Assembly: GCF_000018105.1 (NCBI RefSeq)
Contig: NC_009925.1
Coordinates: forward strand, 2,490,001 to 2,522,000
From: Acaryochloris marina MBIC11017
Lineage (GTDB): Bacteria > Cyanobacteriota > Cyanobacteriia > Thermosynechococcales > Thermosynechococcaceae
Reading direction: 5' to 3'
DNA length: 32,000 nt
A program made the translations under genes and the position numbers. Of this stretch, positions 4,991 through 11,938 are shown piece after piece (within the stretch, counting starts at the first letter, position 1; the number at the start of each line of letters is the position of its first letter). A model generated the notes under the pieces. It had not been told where the DNA came from. It was given only the letters and a program-made list of their open reading frames with translations, and ran no database searches.

Positions 4991-6289
4991 CTATAACGTT
5001 GAGCGAATCTGATCGACCGCCTGTTGGAATGGTTCGAAGTCAATTGCTTTGCCAATGGCTTCAGCCTGGGCCAACGATTCTTCTACACCATCTAAGTCGC
5101 CTAGCTGTTGTTGGGCAGAAACAATAAACATTAACAAGTTACGACCTTGACAATATTGATCACCAATTTGCTGAAAAATAGTTTGAGCAGAGTGATAGTA
5201 ATCCATTGCTTGTGCTGGACGGTCTTGCAAACTTCCTAAACCCAATAAGGTATTGGCTTCCCCCAGCCGATCACCCACCTCGCGATACAGACGCAACGCT
5301 TCGTCATAGCGTTCTAAGGCCTCTTGACTTTGCTTGAGAAATTGGAGGACATCACCCAGGGCTTTTAACGTATTGGCTTCCCCCAGCCGATCACCCACCT
5401 CGCGATACAGACGCAACGCTTCGTCATAGCAAATACCAGCCTCGCGGGCGTTATATCTACGTTCAAAATAGAGATTACCCAGTTGTTTTAAACTGGTGGC
5501 CAATTCTGCGGGCAAATCCAGTTTTTCTAATAATTGCACGGCTCGTTTATAGACCTGGATGGCAAACTCACGATTTTGCCTGCTTTGACTTCGCTTCGTA
5601 TAAACTTGCCCCAATTGAGCATACAGGTCTACTAATTGGGCTGAATCTTTATCGGCCCGCTGCTCCAGTGATTCAATCAGGCTCATCAACGCTTCTATAT
5701 CAGGATCTAACCCCCTAGTTGTCGCTTTTTCCGTCGCCTTGGAAGCCGTAGATGTTAAGAGAGCCGCATCACTGGGGTCAACGCCAAACCAAAAAACGCC
5801 ACTGCGCCAACTCCAAAAATCAGGTGATTGCTCTGCTAATAAACGCACCACCTTGCGATTGACCCAGAGCACAACCGGAAACCGAAATTGCCGCAAAGCT
5901 TCTCGGGTCCATTGCAAGTACCCTAGAAATCGGGCTTGCTGAGACTCTGGGATCGCCAACATTGGCGGCAGTAAATCTCCAATCCCTAGCACCGTGACCA
6001 CTGCAGGCTGATGCTCCTGTAAAACAGGCTGTTGATCGACCAACTGCTCTAATCCCGTCCGCAAACTGGGGTCTTGACGGTTAATAAACAACCGAAAGGC
6101 ATGTACCCCCTGTTCCCGTAAAGCTTGCTCATAGTCCTCAATTACGGCAGTTTGCAAGTTACGGTTTTCTGCCACGGCAATCAGTAACCCCAATTGCCCC
6201 TGATTCGCCTCTAGGGCAACTAGCAGCCGCAGGTATTGGCGTTGTTCTTCCGCAGAGCGCTCAATGGTGGGCATCCTCAGCACTCCCAT
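4991..6289 (-). CDS. TPR-repeat protein with an unassigned ~175-aa N-terminal alpha/beta-looking domain
   Basis: The C-terminal half is made of 40-42 aa TPR units of the kinesin-light-chain-like type (LGNLYFERRYNAREAGICYDEALRLYREVGDRLGEANTLKALGDVLQF...). Its start overlaps the end of the upstream ATPase gene. Confidence 0.85.
   Translation of the reverse strand: MGVLRMPTIERSAEEQRQYLRLLVALEANQGQLGLLIAVAENRNLQTAVIEDYEQALREQGVHAFRLFINRQDPSLRTGLEQLVDQQPVLQEHQPAVVTVLGIGDLLPPMLAIPESQQARFLGYLQWTREALRQFRFPVVLWVNRKVVRLLAEQSPDFWSWRSGVFWFGVDPSDAALLTSTASKATEKATTRGLDPDIEALMSLIESLEQRADKDSAQLVDLYAQLGQVYTKRSQSRQNREFAIQVYKRAVQLLEKLDLPAELATSLKQLGNLYFERRYNAREAGICYDEALRLYREVGDRLGEANTLKALGDVLQFLKQSQEALERYDEALRLYREVGDRLGEANTLLGLGSLQDRPAQAMDYYHSAQTIFQQIGDQYCQGRNLLMFIVSAQQQLGDLDGVEESLAQAEAIGKAIDFEPFQQAVDQIRSTL
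5250..5430. repeat. Two identical 61-bp copies (5250-5310 and 5370-5430) with a 120-bp period, inside the TPR gene
   Basis: Direct reading: gtattggcttcccccagccgatcacccacctcgcgatacagacgcaacgcttcgtcatagc occurs twice without mismatch. It encodes YDEALRLYREVGDRLGEANT twice. Confidence 0.95.
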
Positions 6290-7607
6290 AGTCCATCGTT
6301 GGCAGCAATTGCTCTAGCTGGAGATGTTTTTTCACAATCGGATGCACATCGTACCAGACCTGATTGTTGCGATATTCCAAGATATATAAACCGTGCAACA
6401 GCAGGGCAAAATCTTCATCATCGACTTCTTCTGGCTTAGCCTCTTTATAGGTTTTGACTAAAATCTCAGACCGCCGCTTGCCCAAAGACAGAGAAAATTC
6501 ATTCCGCAGTTCCTGCACAGCCAGGTCCAGCACCTGAGCATCAATTTTCATCTCAGTCCGTTCCGGCTCCAGCCGCAGCAGCAGCGAACATTGACTGAAA
6601 CATTCCCGAGCAATCCGCACCATTTCCCGCAATACTCCTCCACTCAGCAACACAATCTGCCGGGCCGTTTGCGGAGACATTACTTCTGACCAGTGCTCAC
6701 CAAAGCGACGTTCTAATACTTTGAGAAAAATATCGACCTTGCGTTGATCCGGCTGCTGTTGAAGATGACGATCGGCCTTAGTAAAAAATTTAGCAACTCC
6801 CATTTGCAAAATCGGACGACCACAAGCCGACTGCAAAATCGTGCGGAGTTCAATATCTCTGACCACGGCTATCGGAATAGTAAACACCATCCGCATTTTG
6901 GGCTGAAAAAGCGCCAGGATATTGTTCTTGTAAATTTCCTCCACCAGTTTCCAATCCAATTTATCCAGATCATCAATAATTACCAATAGGGGCCGGATTG
7001 CATGATGCTGAATCAGGTCAGCTATCTCTTCTATTTTGGCTACCAGTTCAGAGATACGCCGCTCATAGGTGCGTTTAATTTCTTCCCTAAAGGTGGATTC
7101 CGTTTGTAGCTTAGCGGTCAAAACTTTCAGAACATCGCCACCAATCCCAATTTGAGATTTGAGATCCTTAGTTTCAGTGGTGGAGTGAGTGGTAATGAAC
7201 CAATTTAAAATCTCTTCCTGAGTGGTCGAGGGAATATCCACCTCGGACTCACTCGCCTTACTCAGAAGCTGTAAAGCGATAGCATAAAGAATATTGACAT
7301 GATCCACTGCCGACATTTCCACCATGTCAGAGATGGAAAAGCGCACGACAAAATAGCGAGGCTCTCGCTCTGGATCACTCATCAGGCGGCCAAACTGGGC
7401 GAGTAGCGTTGACTTCCCACACCCCCGATGTCCTGCAAAAATGATTTTGCCGTCTTTTGGAGCATCATCCACAGCCTGCTCTAGCCGCACCAATGCATCC
7501 TGACCATAATCGACGCGAAATGACTCAACTTCGTCGTCAGACAATAAGGGAAATAAATCTAAATCCCGATAAGCCTGCCGAAAGGTTGCTAGAAGGGGGT
7601 TATTCAT
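6261..7607 (-). CDS. P-loop NTPase, STAND/AAA+-like (nucleotide-binding domain plus winged-helix-like C-terminus), no sensor or effector domain
   Basis: Walker A is GHRGCGKST (nt 7407-7433). Walker B is LLVIIDDLD (nt 6963-6989). The C-terminal LLLHGLYILEYRNNQVWYDVHPIVKKHL resembles the WH/MHD-like end of STAND modules. The stop lies 14-29 nt inside the next ORF. Confidence 0.75.
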   Translation of the reverse strand: MNNPLLATFRQAYRDLDLFPLLSDDEVESFRVDYGQDALVRLEQAVDDAPKDGKIIFAGHRGCGKSTLLAQFGRLMSDPEREPRYFVVRFSISDMVEMSAVDHVNILYAIALQLLSKASESEVDIPSTTQEEILNWFITTHSTTETKDLKSQIGIGGDVLKVLTAKLQTESTFREEIKRTYERRISELVAKIEEIADLIQHHAIRPLLVIIDDLDKLDWKLVEEIYKNNILALFQPKMRMVFTIPIAVVRDIELRTILQSACGRPILQMGVAKFFTKADRHLQQQPDQRKVDIFLKVLERRFGEHWSEVMSPQTARQIVLLSGGVLREMVRIARECFSQCSLLLRLEPERTEMKIDAQVLDLAVQELRNEFSLSLGKRRSEILVKTYKEAKPEEVDDEDFALLLHGLYILEYRNNQVWYDVHPIVKKHLQLEQLLPTMDYGSAEDAHH

Positions 7608-7767
7608 AGGTAATGAATCGTGCTGGCCTTCATCATACCCAACCTCAGCAATTCAAATGCAAAAAATACTAACCAATACACGGTTCACACCGTTCAATGC
7701 CCATTCCCTGACATTCTGATATGAATTCATTTCTCCAGTGGCGAAATCATAATCATGGTTTATCTTA

Positions 7768-8665
7768 GAGGCTGTTTGAGAAGTTTTAGTGCTCCTGCGC
7801 TAGCCTTCGAACCATGAGTCGAATCATCGCCACATAAACAAGCGCTTCAGCCGTCCTAGTCAGCACCTCATAATCTTTATTAAGACGTCGAGACCACAAC
7901 AACCATCCAAACGTCCGTTCTACAATCCATCGTTTGGAAACAACCTGAAACCCCGCTAGATTATCTGAGCGTTTGATCACTTCCAAGACATATTGAGAAC
8001 GGTCCATTACCCACTTCATCAAAGCTTGTCCTTGATAGCCAGCATCGGCCCATATCCGAACTAGACGGGACAAACTCGCACCTTGGCGTCGAGCTTTCCA
8101 AAACAGTATTTTGGCCCCTCGTTGGTCAGAGATATTGGCAGCAGTGACCATCACCATCAAAACCAGCCCTAAAGTATCAACGAGCACATGACGTTTACGA
8201 CCTTTGACCATTTTCCCACCATCAAACCCAATCGAGTGACACCGAGGATTGCCGACTTTAACCGATTGAGCATCGCAGATGGCGGCACTGGGACTTGGAT
8301 GACGGTCTTCACTCACCCGCTCTTGCATGCGCAGATGTTCATTGATGTGGACCCAAGTCCCATCATCGCGCCACCTTCGAAAATAGCTATAGACCGTTGA
8401 CCAACAGGGAAAATCATGGGGTAGCTGTCTCCACTGGCAACCCGTAACCACAAGATAAAAAATGGCATTGAGAACACTGAGCATATCAGTGGTGCGAGGT
8501 CTACCTCCAGGTTTAGCAGCAGGAATCAAGGGCTCAAGTAATTCCCATTGCAGGGTGGTGAGGTCGCTATCATATGCTGTAGGCATTGCTCTCTAGGTCC
8601 TGTCCAGTGTTTGTGTATTGACAGATTAGTACCTTGAGAGCTTTACTCACTTCTCAAACAGCCTC
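7768..8665 (-). mobile_element. IS5-family insertion sequence (short IS1031/IS427-like type), complete, 898 bp
   Basis: Perfect 17-bp terminal inverted repeats: gaggctgtttgagaagt at 7768-7784 and its reverse complement at 8649-8665. Flanking 3-bp direct repeat TTA at 7765-7767 and 8666-8668. A single transposase ORF lies inside. Confidence 0.9.
7786..8586 (-). CDS. IS5-family DDE transposase
   Basis: The N-terminal LTTLQWELLEPLIPAAKPGGRPR is a DUF4096-type HTH. The DDE region contains VDTLGLVL...IWADAGYQG...KRWIVERTFGWL..RRLNKDYE. Confidence 0.9.
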   Translation of the reverse strand: MPTAYDSDLTTLQWELLEPLIPAAKPGGRPRTTDMLSVLNAIFYLVVTGCQWRQLPHDFPCWSTVYSYFRRWRDDGTWVHINEHLRMQERVSEDRHPSPSAAICDAQSVKVGNPRCHSIGFDGGKMVKGRKRHVLVDTLGLVLMVMVTAANISDQRGAKILFWKARRQGASLSRLVRIWADAGYQGQALMKWVMDRSQYVLEVIKRSDNLAGFQVVSKRWIVERTFGWLLWSRRLNKDYEVLTRTAEALVYVAMIRLMVRRLAQEH

Positions 8666-8694
8666 TTAGATGAGGCCGCCTATTCAACCTCCTG

Positions 8695-9468
8695 GTGCCA
8701 ACGGTGCAAATTCAACTCGTTTGGACTGATCCAACTTCTGGTAAAACCTATCAGCCCCATTTTCAGCCTCCGGTTGCTTTGGGACAAAGCTTTAATCTGA
8801 TGCCTGCCACCCATCAAGGGCAAGCAGTGAGTCGAATTGTGCTCCATGATGACGCAGTACAGGCATTTCATGCTTTGTTGGAAGTGCGACAGAGTAGCGT
8901 TTGGTTATGCAGCCAGGCAGACAGCCAAATTAACGGGGTCACTGTTACTGAGGGAGTTTTAACCCATGGTGACCGAATTCAGATCGGTCCCTTTGAACTC
9001 ACATTCACGCTTGTCCCAAAGCCAACCACCACCGAGGACCCCCTCCAAGATCAAGCATCGGCCATCAGTGGAGACTCTCGTTCTACCTCACTTTCGGGTA
9101 TGGCCCAGATCCCTACAGAGCGCCCCGCGCAAACAGCACAGGCGAATCGTTCTTCTAGGGAATGGGTTTGCGATCGCAAAATCGGTTTCTTGTTCAAACG
9201 GAACTGCGATCGCACCACAGCATTGGGATGTCCCTACTGTCTCGATGGTCAAAGCAAGCTCAACCAAGACCCTTACTGGTTAGACTATGACCTCTATCCT
9301 GGTTATGGCACCTATCGTCCCGGCAGTTGGGGCTATGAATACTATCGTGATCGCGCTTACTACTGTTACAACCGCGAATCCCGAAACGTCGACTTTACGG
9401 AAGCGGATGCCGCCAGCTTTGAAGAGGAATTAGACACAGATTACGAGATGAATTTTGGGGCCAGCTAA
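8695..9468 (+). CDS. FHA-like domain protein with a Cys4 and Tyr/Gly-rich acidic C-terminal tail
   Basis: GTG start 27 nt after the IS5 end. FHA-like core: SRIVLHDDAVQAFHALLEV...SQINGVTVTEGVLTHGDRIQIGPFELTF. The tail is WVCDRK..NCDR..GCPYCLDG followed by YWLDYDLYPGYGTYRPGSWGYEYYRDRAYYCY. Confidence 0.7.
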   Translation: MPTVQIQLVWTDPTSGKTYQPHFQPPVALGQSFNLMPATHQGQAVSRIVLHDDAVQAFHALLEVRQSSVWLCSQADSQINGVTVTEGVLTHGDRIQIGPFELTFTLVPKPTTTEDPLQDQASAISGDSRSTSLSGMAQIPTERPAQTAQANRSSREWVCDRKIGFLFKRNCDRTTALGCPYCLDGQSKLNQDPYWLDYDLYPGYGTYRPGSWGYEYYRDRAYYCYNRESRNVDFTEADAASFEEELDTDYEMNFGAS

Positions 9469-10469
9469 TGGCCACTTGGCTGATTTATGCCTTAGGTGGT
9501 GGCTGGGGACATCTCAATCGGGCCATCGCTTTGGGCCGACAGGCCGCCCCTCAGCATCACGTTCGCATCCTCACCAATTCACCCTATGCCCCTTGGGTTG
9601 AAACTCAATTGCATCAGATTGCTTGCAGCCCATCTGTGGTGTCGAATTTATCCTTGCAGATTTTGCCTACAGCTTCCTTTACCGAAACGCGGCATCAGGT
9701 GCAAAGGATAATTCAAAACAAAAATTATGACTGCTTAATCGTCGATACTTTTCCCCGTGGCTTGGGGGGAGAGTTGGTGGACTGCTTGCCCTCCCTCTCT
9801 TCTATTCCCACAATACTGATTCATCGGGATATCGATCCAGCTTACGTTCAAGCCAAGCAGGTGGGGCAATTTGTTGAGGCTTACTATGACACCATTCTAA
9901 TTCCAGGCGAGGGGGATGACGTCCCGTTTGCTGATTTTCCCCAAGCCGTTCATACCGAACCCTGGGTAATATTGAATGCCCCAGAGTTACCCCCTGTTCT
10001 GCCAACAGAAAAACCCACCCTCGTCGTCGTAGCAGCCGGGAATCTTGAGGAGATGGCTTTTTGGGGACAGTTGATGGTGCGATTACAGGCCACCTTTTCG
10101 GAAGCTAACTGCCGCTGTCTTGCCTATACTTGTCCTCCTGGGTGTCCACCCCACCTATGGATCCAACAATGGCCAGGACTGCCCATCTTGCACCAGGCTG
10201 ATGTGGTGATTGGCGGTGCAGGCTACAATACCGTCTTTGAATGTCACGCTTTGGGTAAGCCACTGATTGCCATTGCTTGGCCTCGTCAATATGATCAGCA
10301 ACGGCGCCGAGGTCAGCAATGGGCAACGCTGGTGGAGACGCCTCAAGCAGCTATAGATGCGGTAAAAGATTTATTGCAAGCTTCCCGGAATCCAAACCAG
10401 ATCCAACTGTATAGGAATGGGATTGGGGATGCGATCGCAATCATAGACAAGACATACTCAGCTCCATAG
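9468..10469 (+). CDS. GT-B fold glycosyltransferase (GT1/GT28, MurG/PseG-like)
   Basis: The ATG shares its A with the TAA stop of the FHA gene (TAATG at 9466-9470). N-terminal glycine loop GGGWGHLNRAIALG. C-terminal ADVVIGGAGYNTVFECHALGKPLIAI. Confidence 0.6.
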   Translation: MATWLIYALGGGWGHLNRAIALGRQAAPQHHVRILTNSPYAPWVETQLHQIACSPSVVSNLSLQILPTASFTETRHQVQRIIQNKNYDCLIVDTFPRGLGGELVDCLPSLSSIPTILIHRDIDPAYVQAKQVGQFVEAYYDTILIPGEGDDVPFADFPQAVHTEPWVILNAPELPPVLPTEKPTLVVVAAGNLEEMAFWGQLMVRLQATFSEANCRCLAYTCPPGCPPHLWIQQWPGLPILHQADVVIGGAGYNTVFECHALGKPLIAIAWPRQYDQQRRRGQQWATLVETPQAAIDAVKDLLQASRNPNQIQLYRNGIGDAIAIIDKTYSAP

Positions 10470-10781: not shown

Positions 10782-11087
10782 ATGTCATCAAAACGTCGTC
10801 AATATAGTGCTGAGTTCAAAGCTCAAGTGGTCTTACAATTGTTAAGCGGTGAAAAAACGAGCAGTGCATTGTGTCGCATCCATACCCTGCACTCTAGCCT
10901 CCTCAACCGCTGGCGCAAGGAATTTCTAGCGCACGCCAGTAGCATTTTTGAGAGTCAGAACAACGACGACAACGCTGAAGCGAAAATTGCTCAGTTAGAG
11001 CGTCTAGTCGGCCAATTGACGCTGCAATTAGAGATCGCAAAAAAAGCCTCAATGTCCTTACACCTAACCAAAAACGGCAGATGGTGA
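10782..11087 (+). CDS. IS3-family transposase OrfA (HTH)
   Basis: RRQYSAEFKAQVVLQLLSGEKTSSALCRIHTLHSSLLNRWRKEF is a typical IS3 OrfA HTH, followed by a leucine-zipper-like region. Confidence 0.85.
   Translation: MSSKRRQYSAEFKAQVVLQLLSGEKTSSALCRIHTLHSSLLNRWRKEFLAHASSIFESQNNDDNAEAKIAQLERLVGQLTLQLEIAKKASMSLHLTKNGRW
11039..11045 (+). other. Programmed -1 ribosomal frameshift site (A AAA AAA) joining OrfA to OrfB
   Basis: Seven consecutive A at 11039-11045, in register with the orfA codons AAA AAA. The -1 frame is open from here into orfB (KKSLNVLTPNQKRQMVRQL...). Confidence 0.7.
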
Positions 11088-11938
11088 GACAGTTGCAGCA
11101 GGACTATTCCATTCGCCAAATTTGTCAGGTACTCAATTACCCACGCTCTCAAGTGTATTACCATGCCAGAGGCCAACCGGATGAGAGCGAACTAAAAGCG
11201 GCCATTGCTGGAGTTGCTGGAGCCTATCCGACTTATGGCTATCGTCGAATCACCGCCCAACTGCAGCGTCAGGGGTATTGCGTTAACCATAAACGCGTGG
11301 CTCGACTAATGCGACAGATAGGGATTATGGCCAAGACCAAAGTCAAACGCAAACGCACCACCAATAGCGAACATTCGTTCCCTCGCTATGGCAATCGAGT
11401 GTTGAATCTCTCCATCGACCATCCTGAGCAGGTGTGGGTGGCGGACATCACGTACATTCGCTTACAGCAGGAGTTTGTCTATTTGGCCGTCGTGATGGAT
11501 GTCTTTACTCGCGCCATTCGTGGCTGGCATCTGTCCCGCCATATCGACCAGCAACTAACGTTGAGGGCGTTGAACAAGGCGTTGGAGCGGGCAACGCCTG
11601 AGATTCACCATTCTGACCAAGGGGTTCAGTATGCCGCTGCAGCCTATATGCAATTGCTCCAACAACACCAAGTGCAAATCAGTATGGCCGAGGTGGGACA
11701 GGCTTGGCAAAATGGCTATGCTGAGCGATTGATGAGAACGATAAAAGAAGAAGAGGTCGATTTATCAGACTATCGAAATTTTACTGAAGCGTATGAGCAC
11801 ATTGAGCAGTTTCTAGAAGATGTGTATATGCATAAGCGGATTCATTCATCACTGGGGTATTTGACACCCTGTGAATATGAGCAGCAGTGGAGACAACAGA
11901 ACAATCACTATTGTATGAATAAGGAGGATAGCGCTTAA
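11081..11938 (+). CDS. IS3-family transposase OrfB (DDE integrase core), expressed as an OrfAB fusion
   Basis: WVADITYI...HSDQGVQYAA...NGYAERLMRTIKEE is the rve-type D,D(35)E catalytic core. It lies in the -1 frame relative to orfA. Confidence 0.85.
   Translation: MVRQLQQDYSIRQICQVLNYPRSQVYYHARGQPDESELKAAIAGVAGAYPTYGYRRITAQLQRQGYCVNHKRVARLMRQIGIMAKTKVKRKRTTNSEHSFPRYGNRVLNLSIDHPEQVWVADITYIRLQQEFVYLAVVMDVFTRAIRGWHLSRHIDQQLTLRALNKALERATPEIHHSDQGVQYAAAAYMQLLQQHQVQISMAEVGQAWQNGYAERLMRTIKEEEVDLSDYRNFTEAYEHIEQFLEDVYMHKRIHSSLGYLTPCEYEQQWRQQNNHYCMNKEDSA

Follow-up and report, generated by a model that had tools for sequence, protein, structure and literature searches.

The stretch of DNA considered here, referred to below as the window, comprises 32,000 nucleotides (nt) of Acaryochloris marina MBIC11017 (contig NC_009925.1, positions 2,490,001 to 2,522,000), and all positions are counted from its first letter. 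Two overlapping genes within it encode a P-loop ATPase and a partner protein that ends in tetratricopeptide repeats (TPRs). A preliminary description, prepared from the letters and translations alone, had presented this pair as a split STAND-like module in which a nucleotide switch and a repeat sensor are encoded separately, are translationally coupled and lack a recognisable effector. Both open reading frames (ORFs) are present with the motifs ascribed to them; their strand, which had been left unstated, is minus. The interpretation developed below, which is held with moderate confidence, is that the pair constitutes a self-contained two-gene operon, found throughout the cyanobacteria, whose products are the two subunits of a STAND/KAP-like nucleotide switch without an effector, with a role that is most likely cell-intrinsic.

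The features of the locus are collected in Table 1. The stop codon of the ATPase gene (6261-6263) falls within the ORF of the second gene, for which ATG codons at 6289 and 6274 had been proposed as starts. The alternative ATG at 6274 is preceded by GGGAG 8 nt upstream, and in a sister contig from a metagenome (L091) the overlap was called as 14 nt, with a start corresponding to 6274. The overlap is therefore given as probably 14 nt, or 29 nt if the partner begins at 6289. The C-terminal end of the ATPase reads ...LYILEYRNNQVWYDVHPIVKKHL..., and the GC content of the pair (~0.48) is similar to that of its flanks.

Table 1. Features of the ATPase/partner locus and its immediate surroundings, in window coordinates.
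Feature	Position	Strand	Basis or remark
Gene 1, STAND/KAP-like AAA+-type ATPase, predicted active	6261..7607	minus	448-aa ORF
Walker A GHRGCGKST, residues 59-67, K65	7407..7433	minus	translation check
Helical insert of ~100 aa, residues 103-203, strand 2 to Walker B strand	6999..7301	minus	AlphaFold2 model
Walker B LLVIIDDLD, residues 207-215 (D212/D213), then KLD	6963..6989	minus	alignment and translation check
Lid motif SGGVLREMVR, S322-R331, sensor-2-like arginine	6615..6644	minus	alignment and AlphaFold2 model
Winged-helix domain ending WYDVHP; H422 at 6342-6344	6300..6491	minus	AlphaFold2 model and alignment
Gene overlap at coupling junction	6261..6289	minus	14 nt (ATG 6274) or 29 nt (ATG 6289)
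Gene 2, partner: predicted pseudo-AAA+ N-domain, linker and TPR repeats	4991..6289	minus	432-aa ORF
Partner N-domain, residues 1-170, AAA+-like alpha/beta fold without P-loop	5780..6289	minus	AlphaFold2 and Foldseek
QWTRE motif, containing R129	5900..5914	minus	100% conserved in 79 sequences
DFWSWR motif, R162 just before strand 5	5804..5821	minus	alignment and AlphaFold2 model
TPR array of TPR_12/LGN/kinesin-light-chain type	4994..5644	minus	Pfam TPR_12, E 3.8e-19
Two 65-nt copies (5246-5310 and 5366-5430)	5246..5430	minus	98% identical, spaced 120 nt
IS4/5-type insertion sequence	7762-8671		23-nt inverted repeats at 7762-7784 and 8649-8671
Insertion sequence transposase ORF	7786-8586	minus	DUF4096 and DDE_Tnp_1
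FHA-domain protein gene	8695-9468	plus	upstream, divergent from the pair, also in L091
Glyco_tran_28_C-like gene	9468-10469	plus	upstream, divergent from the pair, also in L091

Conservation of the ATPase was assessed in an alignment of 40 homologues with a mean column identity of 57%, in which the window protein keeps every residue that is invariant across the family. Within the Walker A region (G59-L69), R61 is conserved in at least 90% of the sequences and every other residue is invariant. The motifs without variation are GH.GCGKSTLL, I.DDLDK.D, an IP following the fourth strand, SGGV.RE..R in the lid and LLHGL..LEY.N...W...HP in the C-terminal domain; within the lid, the unchanging residues are S322, G323, G324, V325, R327, E328 and R331. 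The same alignment contains no invariant arginine at the ATPase's own arginine-finger position. A separation of about 145 residues between the Walker motifs had been remarked on earlier, and the distance from K65 to D212 is indeed 147 residues, with the previously quoted helical stretch lying between them. This long spacing and its helical insert are genuine and conserved in the family: R174 in the insert is invariant, and K166, L167, E170, F173 and E176 are nearly so.

The AlphaFold2 model of the ATPase (pLDDT 84, pTM 0.83) consists of an alpha/beta core, the helical insert, a helical lid (H288-372) and a winged helix, and it predicts the insert as six helices, from H103-120 to H185-203. SGGVLREMVR is placed in lid helix H326-346, and the SGGVxRE element is taken here to resemble the sensor-2 GDAR motif of ORC/Cdc6. 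A winged-helix end of the nucleotide-binding module, suspected from the primary sequence, is present in the model as helices followed by a beta hairpin (E409-413, E417-421) and a helix at 423-431. H422 of WYDVHP is invariant and starts this last helix; WYDVHP presumably resembles the MHD/'YRxHPL' position of STAND proteins, and H422 would then occupy the position of the MHD histidine. The first subunit is thus shown to carry intact Walker A, Walker B and lid motifs, in a modeled arrangement of AAA+ core, insert, lid and winged helix.

Weak matches to AAA_16 were found in all 40 aligned homologues, and weak matches to NACHT and to KAP_NTPase in 37 each. For the window ATPase, no curated STAND model (NACHT, NB-ARC, AAA_16, nSTAND) rises above its gathering threshold, with scores of 28.0 against 32.6 for AAA_16, 22.2 against 26.7 for NACHT and 10.9 against 23.5 for NB-ARC. 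The score against KAP_NTPase (PF07693) is marginal, at 20.1 bits against a cut-off of 20 (E 4e-4); among the homologues the best E value for this model is 2e-7, and the model alignment spans the helical insert. Phmmer and profile searches of the PDB found no sequence relative of the ATPase with a solved structure. A Foldseek search of the PDB matched archaeal Cdc6/Orc1 (1fnn, 2qby; E 1.0-1.4e-5), CED-4 (E 1.9e-5, TM-score 0.37), Tn7 TnsC (E 2e-5) and RADAR RdrA (E 4e-5), along with ORC subunits and MuB, all at low TM-scores (0.35-0.42). The original designation of the ATPase as STAND-like is borne out by these profile and structural matches, and the protein belongs to the STAND/KAP/ORC-Cdc6 (initiator) part of AAA+, where it has no dedicated family model.

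The partner had been regarded as a repeat sensor, with TPRs in the C-terminal half of the protein. That half was correctly recognized (Table 1), and its repeats give PDB sequence matches to LGN/Pins (E 1e-22); residues 1-170, overlooked earlier, are a separate conserved domain. A search with this N-domain returned 88 matches, which define a cyanobacterial family, and its conservation was assessed in 79 sequences with pairwise identities below 80%. Every one of these contains QWTRE and D-F-W-x-W; R162 is kept in 94% of them, and C40 and D41 each in more than 90%. Residues 1-170 have no match in the Pfam, NCBIfam or PADLOC libraries, and phmmer and profile searches of the PDB yielded TPR matches only, with no relative for the N-domain.

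The AlphaFold2 model of the N-domain (pLDDT 88) contains five beta-alpha units, with R162 immediately preceding strand E164-168. In a Foldseek search of the PDB, every top match to the domain is an AAA+ core. These matches include Aeropyrum pernix ORC2 (1w5t, E 1.4e-5), human ORC4 and TnsC (7rzy; TM-score 0.61, root-mean-square deviation 4.3), as well as Avs4, NSF, p97, IstB, DnaC and Vps4. No GxxxxGK[ST] Walker A motif is present. Strand 1 instead enters helix 1 by a two-residue turn in the place of the P-loop, where the consensus is LLIAVCDD, and it is for this reason that the domain is named, and predicted to be, a pseudo-AAA+ domain. The position of R162 in the model resembles that of an arginine finger, and the residue may act as one. 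The second subunit is accordingly shown, as modeled, to combine a P-loop-less AAA+-like core with a TPR array of variable length. Derivation of the N-domain as a degenerate copy of the ATPase was considered and rejected, with an hhalign probability of 0.2% and no profile relation between the two.

The window partner has an unusual sequence at the site in question. Residues 38-45 (6155-6178) include AVAEN in place of the AVCDD shared by more than 90% of the family, and the sister contig has T at position 40. The C40A/D41E change is specific to this lineage and affects the site that stands in for the P-loop.

The TPR array is the changeable part of the partner. The two 65-nt copies in the window are spaced by exactly one 40-aa TPR unit (120 nt), which indicates a recent duplication of a TPR unit or gene conversion, and in the orthologue from Scytonema (L007) this 40-aa unit recurs many times in nearly identical form. 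Across orthologues the array ranges from about one to more than 10 repeats, varying by gain and loss of units, and the partners of 83 loci are between 233 and 833 aa long (median 587 aa). The Candidatus Cyanaurora partner (233 aa) and one from Pseudanabaena have only about one repeat. Because array length varies in this way, the constant element of the partner is the N-domain rather than the TPR 'sensor arm' originally emphasized. A hydrophobic C-terminal segment of about 19 residues occurs in 2 of 70 partners (L007 and L031), e.g. LTFICVGIVAFFCLWFLLH, and suggests a membrane tail anchor in some lineages.

Databases contain more than 1,134 homologues of the ATPase, almost all cyanobacterial and almost all standalone proteins of about 430 aa, which bear generic names ('P-loop NTPase fold protein', 'ATP-binding protein', 'KAP family P-loop domain protein'). 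In a phyletic scan of one genome per GTDB species, at least 521 species genomes encode a relative of the ATPase. The 80 loci kept are all from cyanobacteria, and include Candidatus Cyanaurora, Pseudanabaena, Acaryochloris, Leptolyngbya, Oscillatoria, Okeania, Microcoleus and many Nostocales; carriers of the pair include unicellular forms. A literature search found no paper describing this ATPase/TPR pair.

In tblastn searches with residues 1-185 of the window partner, a partner was detected directly downstream of the ATPase gene, on the same strand, in 83 of 85 loci (39-59% identity, E 1e-32 to 1e-61), and the two remaining loci are contigs that end at the ATPase. The genes overlap at 58 of the 83 junctions, with a median of -11 nt and ATGA in some, and most of the other junctions are within about 10 nt. 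A distant chromosomal pair (L086) has the same arrangement of an ATPase followed by an N-domain-TPR protein. The split is a genuine one and not the product of a pseudogene, as in the orthologues two separate ORFs encode proteins of about 430 aa and about 230-830 aa. Separate encoding, as stated in the preliminary description, is thereby upheld, and translational coupling, its companion claim, fits the strict synteny and the overlapping or closely spaced junctions.

Neighboring genes were surveyed by clustering the flanking ORFs over 39 lineage groups, between which ATPase identity is below 80%. All 39 have the ATPase and 36 the partner, the other three being truncated contigs. There is no third conserved neighbor in this survey, as the next gene family occurs in at most five of the 39 groups. 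The flanks annotated by Pfam are unrelated housekeeping genes (rnpA/yidC, ndhC-K-J, isocitrate dehydrogenase, GUN4, CoaBC and dnaX), and the context in the window is ordinary chromosome, with pilB, glycosyltransferases, RND efflux genes, miaE and ndhF. In Trichormus variabilis (L092/L093), a copy of the pair lies downstream of ndhC-ndhK-ndhJ on the same strand, separated by a gap of 174 nt, and its two genes overlap by 11 nt.

Ratios of nonsynonymous to synonymous substitution rates (dN/dS), from 117 pairs drawn from 41 Nostoc-clade loci, are 0.06 for the ATPase, 0.12 for the partner N-domain and 0.12 for the TPR part; all parts of the pair are, by this sequence measure, under purifying selection. 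A neighbor-joining tree of the ATPase has two deep clades, and that of the window protein also includes Egbenema, 'J069' and Scytonema/Mastigocladopsis group A. Paralogous pairs from the same genomes fall into the two deep clades, which implies a probable ancient duplication of the whole two-gene module. Examples of multiple copies, spread over both clades, are loci L044 and L076, L065 and L083, and L002 versus P0241.

The absence of a recognisable effector, a central element of the first account of the pair, stood up to profile searches: no nuclease, protease, TIR, kinase or transmembrane domain was found in either protein with Pfam, NCBIfam or PADLOC, and the maximum 19-residue hydropathy of the two proteins is 1.4-1.7 (1.41 for the ATPase). 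No effector is encoded in either gene or in the conserved neighborhood of the 39 lineages. A search of PADLOC-DB v2 likewise matched no named system; nothing exceeds P-loop noise, the best ATPase match being PtuA at 18.8 bits over the P-loop region only, and the partner matches only a generic TPR model. No relatives of the pair were found in 2.9 million viral contigs or 50,697 phage genomes. Among 72,556 plasmids, only ATPase paralogues of at most 24% identity were detected, and the partner N-domain was unmatched. The loci of the pair have no defence-island context.

Taken together, the anatomy, conservation and context of the pair point to a heteromeric switch with a TPR platform for a conserved client. 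The pseudo-AAA+ domain would dock on the ATPase core to form a hetero-oligomer, and partner R162 and R129 may be supplied to the ATPase active site in trans; this possibility is raised because the ATPase lacks an invariant arginine at its own finger position and R162 stands just before strand 5 of the partner model. Binding and hydrolysis of ATP would gate assembly, and the TPR array would hold a conserved cellular ligand or client. Because the module is chromosomal, phylum-wide, slowly evolving and without a linked effector, the role of the switch is most likely cell-intrinsic (regulation, assembly or scaffolding) rather than one of mobile anti-phage defence.

Several observations weigh against this interpretation. 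The window partner differs from its family at strongly conserved positions (N15E, C40A, D41E). Two or three paralogous pairs per genome are present in some Pseudanabaena and Nostocales (Nostoc, Mastigocladopsis), and such a multi-copy pattern is also seen in signaling and immune families. Distant ATPase paralogues include a fusion of TIR_2 to the ATPase (P0430), and through such TIR-fused members the wider family is connected with conflict systems. Nor do purifying selection and a chromosomal location on their own exclude a defence role.

The wider family was sampled by an exhaustive representative search, which returned 3,611 ATPase relatives, 457 of them with E <1e-30. On plasmid4 of Calothrix sp. 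NIES-4101 (L094, 4824-8279), two ATPase modules are in tandem, the second with a C-terminal TIR-like domain, and they adjoin WD40-repeat and GUN4-domain proteins. The TIR-fused relatives speak for an origin of the family in conflict systems. The ORF downstream of a TIR-fused relative was considered and discarded, as it encodes an unrelated zinc-ribbon-like protein.

A more far-reaching version of the heteromeric switch, with a lower probability, is put forward tentatively. A STAND/KAP lineage with TIR-bearing relatives may have been domesticated in cyanobacteria into a phylum-wide, effector-less and obligately heteromeric machine, consisting of an active ATPase and a pseudo-AAA+ subunit that would complete or gate the active site in trans (through R162/R129) and would carry a TPR platform for a conserved host client. 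If so, the pair would act as an 'NLR-like' switch in a housekeeping role, with subunits arranged in a way so far undescribed among STAND proteins. Discussions of STAND/NLR-like ATPases almost always present them as single-chain immune or death switches composed of sensor, NTPase and effector. Here the switch is split, the constant partner has a predicted dead AAA+-like domain, no effector is attached, and purifying selection acts in hundreds of cyanobacterial species. Should the hetero-oligomer be real, it would offer a tractable example of pseudo-ATPase subunits that regulate STAND-type ATPases and of an immune-type module turned to a core cellular task, and it would give a testable role to widespread cyanobacterial annotations as 'ATP-binding protein' and 'TPR protein'.

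The conflict or defence role suggested in the preliminary description is not favored for this orthologous group, and is considered unlikely. In its fullest form, the pair would be an anti-phage or conflict sensor of the Avs/NLR type, in which the TPRs recognize an invader, the ATPase oligomerizes and the response comes from an effector encoded elsewhere or from sequestration. The STAND/KAP-like features of the ATPase, its weak NACHT, AAA_16 and nSTAND matches and the structural matches to CED-4 and RdrA (ATPase) and Avs4 (partner) are all consistent with such a sensor, as are the TIR-fused distant paralogues, the plasmid-borne paralogues beside WD40 and GUN4 proteins, the shifts in array length through duplication of repeat units and the several paralogous pairs in some genomes. 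Against this, neither the genes nor their conserved neighborhood supply an effector, and the TPR part is as constrained as the rest (dN/dS 0.12). The pair is phylum-wide and chromosomal, occurs in unicellular carriers, evolves slowly and has housekeeping flanks; PADLOC is negative, copies are absent from the phage and viral sequences searched, and none of the plasmids searched carries an orthologue. The TPR array, which would be the sensor, is nearly absent from some orthologues (233-269 aa).

A cytoskeletal or scaffold module is a less probable reading again. The precedent comes from Anabaena, in which All4981, a TPR protein of about 650 aa, is encoded by a gene that overlaps the upstream gene all4982 by 4 bp and is co-transcribed with it (Springstein et al., PMC7002697). 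All4981 interacts with All4982, forms filaments and is probably essential (PMC7002697). By analogy, the partner would polymerize or bridge envelope or cytoskeletal proteins under regulation by the ATPase. Group-A Nostocales loci do share the operon grammar of all4982/all4981 (an ATGA overlap), and the membrane anchor suggested for 2 of 70 partners would suit this role. Peptides derived from the published primers (the All4981 N-terminus MNSELFQKLAKA, the All4982 C-terminus ..LKSEQL and internal primers) are, however, unmatched in 93 loci, and the invariant motifs of the family are absent from the supplementary sequence files of PMC7002697. The Trichormus variabilis pair, furthermore, follows ndhC-K-J and not an arrangement like that of all4983-all4981. 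Judged from these peptides and supplementary sequences, a link of the pair to All4981/All4982 is unlikely.

Still more improbable is a DNA-transaction factor of the ORC/Cdc6 or TnsC/MuB kind, for instance an alternative ATPase for replication initiation or DNA loading in which the pseudo-AAA+ domain is an inactive ORC-type subunit. Some cyanobacteria replicate without depending on DnaA, and such a factor would be in keeping with the layout of AAA+ core, lid and winged helix and with the best Foldseek matches, which are archaeal Cdc6/Orc1 for the ATPase and ORC2 and ORC4 for the partner N-domain. Yet both proteins are acidic, with a pI of 5.45 for the ATPase (family median 5.41) and 4.99 for the partner (family median 4.98), and with net charges of -2 on the winged helix and -5 on the insert. 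The TM-scores of the ATPase are low, and CED-4 scores essentially the same as Cdc6. An ORC-CDC6-like model gives E 0.089 for the window ATPase and weak matches in 7 of the 40 homologues, and the neighbor survey revealed no linkage to replication genes.

The last alternative, a single fused STAND-TPR gene of about 880 aa broken by a frameshift or a sequencing error, has as its one precedent an 811-aa protein (P0362) that joins the first 245 ATPase residues to TPR repeats, and its probability is negligible: orthologue lengths and synteny refute it. Homologues are, almost without exception, separate proteins of about 430 aa, and the genes are split in all 83 informative loci. Both ORFs of the window are intact, the ATPase keeps its family-invariant residues, and the partner begins with a conserved domain of its own, which the C-terminal half of a fused gene would not have.

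The surroundings of the pair in the window include mobile elements. The pair was said earlier to sit beside an insertion sequence (IS) and to contain no copy of HIP1; both statements hold, and both features are incidental. The IS is inserted between the divergent FHA and ATPase genes, 155 nt upstream of the ATPase start, and its target duplication is probably TCTAAGA. The sister contig, which is 89% identical over the aligned ATPase-partner region, lacks the IS and has an FHA-protein gene directly divergent from the ATPase. The comparison marks the insertion as recent, and it may affect the promoter of the operon. There is no HIP1 site between 4742 and 9169. The whole window has 15, about 1.2 would be expected in the 2.6-kb pair, and P(0) is ~0.3, which makes the gap uninformative. 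A foreign origin of the pair, which HIP1 absence and the adjacent IS might have suggested, was rejected, as the HIP1 gap is not significant, GC content is normal and the IS is absent from the sister contig. In the 39-lineage survey, other lineages do not keep the FHA protein beside the pair; near the Egbenema pair (L001) there is an unrelated FHA/carbonic-anhydrase protein. A second mobile-element gene, at 11081-11938, has an rve integrase core and HTH_21, is IS3-like, and lies ~2.4 kb past the first IS.

Several known systems resemble parts of the pair. The ORC/Cdc6 clade provides the top Foldseek matches of both proteins, at TM-scores of only 0.35-0.5, and shares with the pair the order of AAA+ core, lid and winged helix and the pairing of active and degenerate AAA+ subunits; it differs in having no sequence relationship to the pair, whose proteins are acidic and lack a basic DNA-binding winged helix. 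RADAR RdrA and Tn7 TnsC, which are AAA+ ATPases that form rings or filaments, are structural matches of the ATPase, and TnsC also matches the partner N-domain. Unlike in these systems, no RdrB deaminase or transposition genes are found near the pair, and there is no sequence similarity. The KAP NTPases (PF07693; Kidins220/ARMS, PifA) have in common with the ATPase a large insertion between Walker A and Walker B. Inserts in the KAP family typically hold transmembrane helices, whereas that of the ATPase is soluble and acidic, and the KAP score is marginal.

The iSTAND ternary systems, which are enriched in cyanobacteria, combine MoxR, vWA and an inactive STAND component (Kaur et al. 2020, PMC7159879). 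They resemble the pair in having a catalytically dead STAND/AAA+-like domain as a conserved component and in their cyanobacterial enrichment. In contrast to iSTAND systems, the pair has no MoxR or vWA neighbors in the 39 lineages or in the Pfam-annotated contexts, the companion of its dead domain is an ATPase of the active type, and effector/EAD domains are lacking.

The STAND NTPases themselves (NB-ARC/Apaf-1/CED-4, NACHT, MalT/AfsR-type, Avs) differ from the pair in several respects. The solenoid of the pair is on a separate polypeptide, where it is fused to a P-loop-less AAA+-like domain, and in the ATPase Walker A and Walker B are set apart by an insert of about 100 aa. Its lid has an invariant arginine (SGGVxRE) instead of the GxP motif, no effector domain is present in the pair, and no curated STAND model reaches threshold. 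The likeness lies in the domain order (P-loop core, helical lid, winged helix), in a conserved histidine with which the last helix of the winged helix begins, and in the association with a TPR-type solenoid; it extends to the structural matches to CED-4 and Avs4 and to the weak AAA_16, NACHT, NPHP3_N and nSTAND matches.

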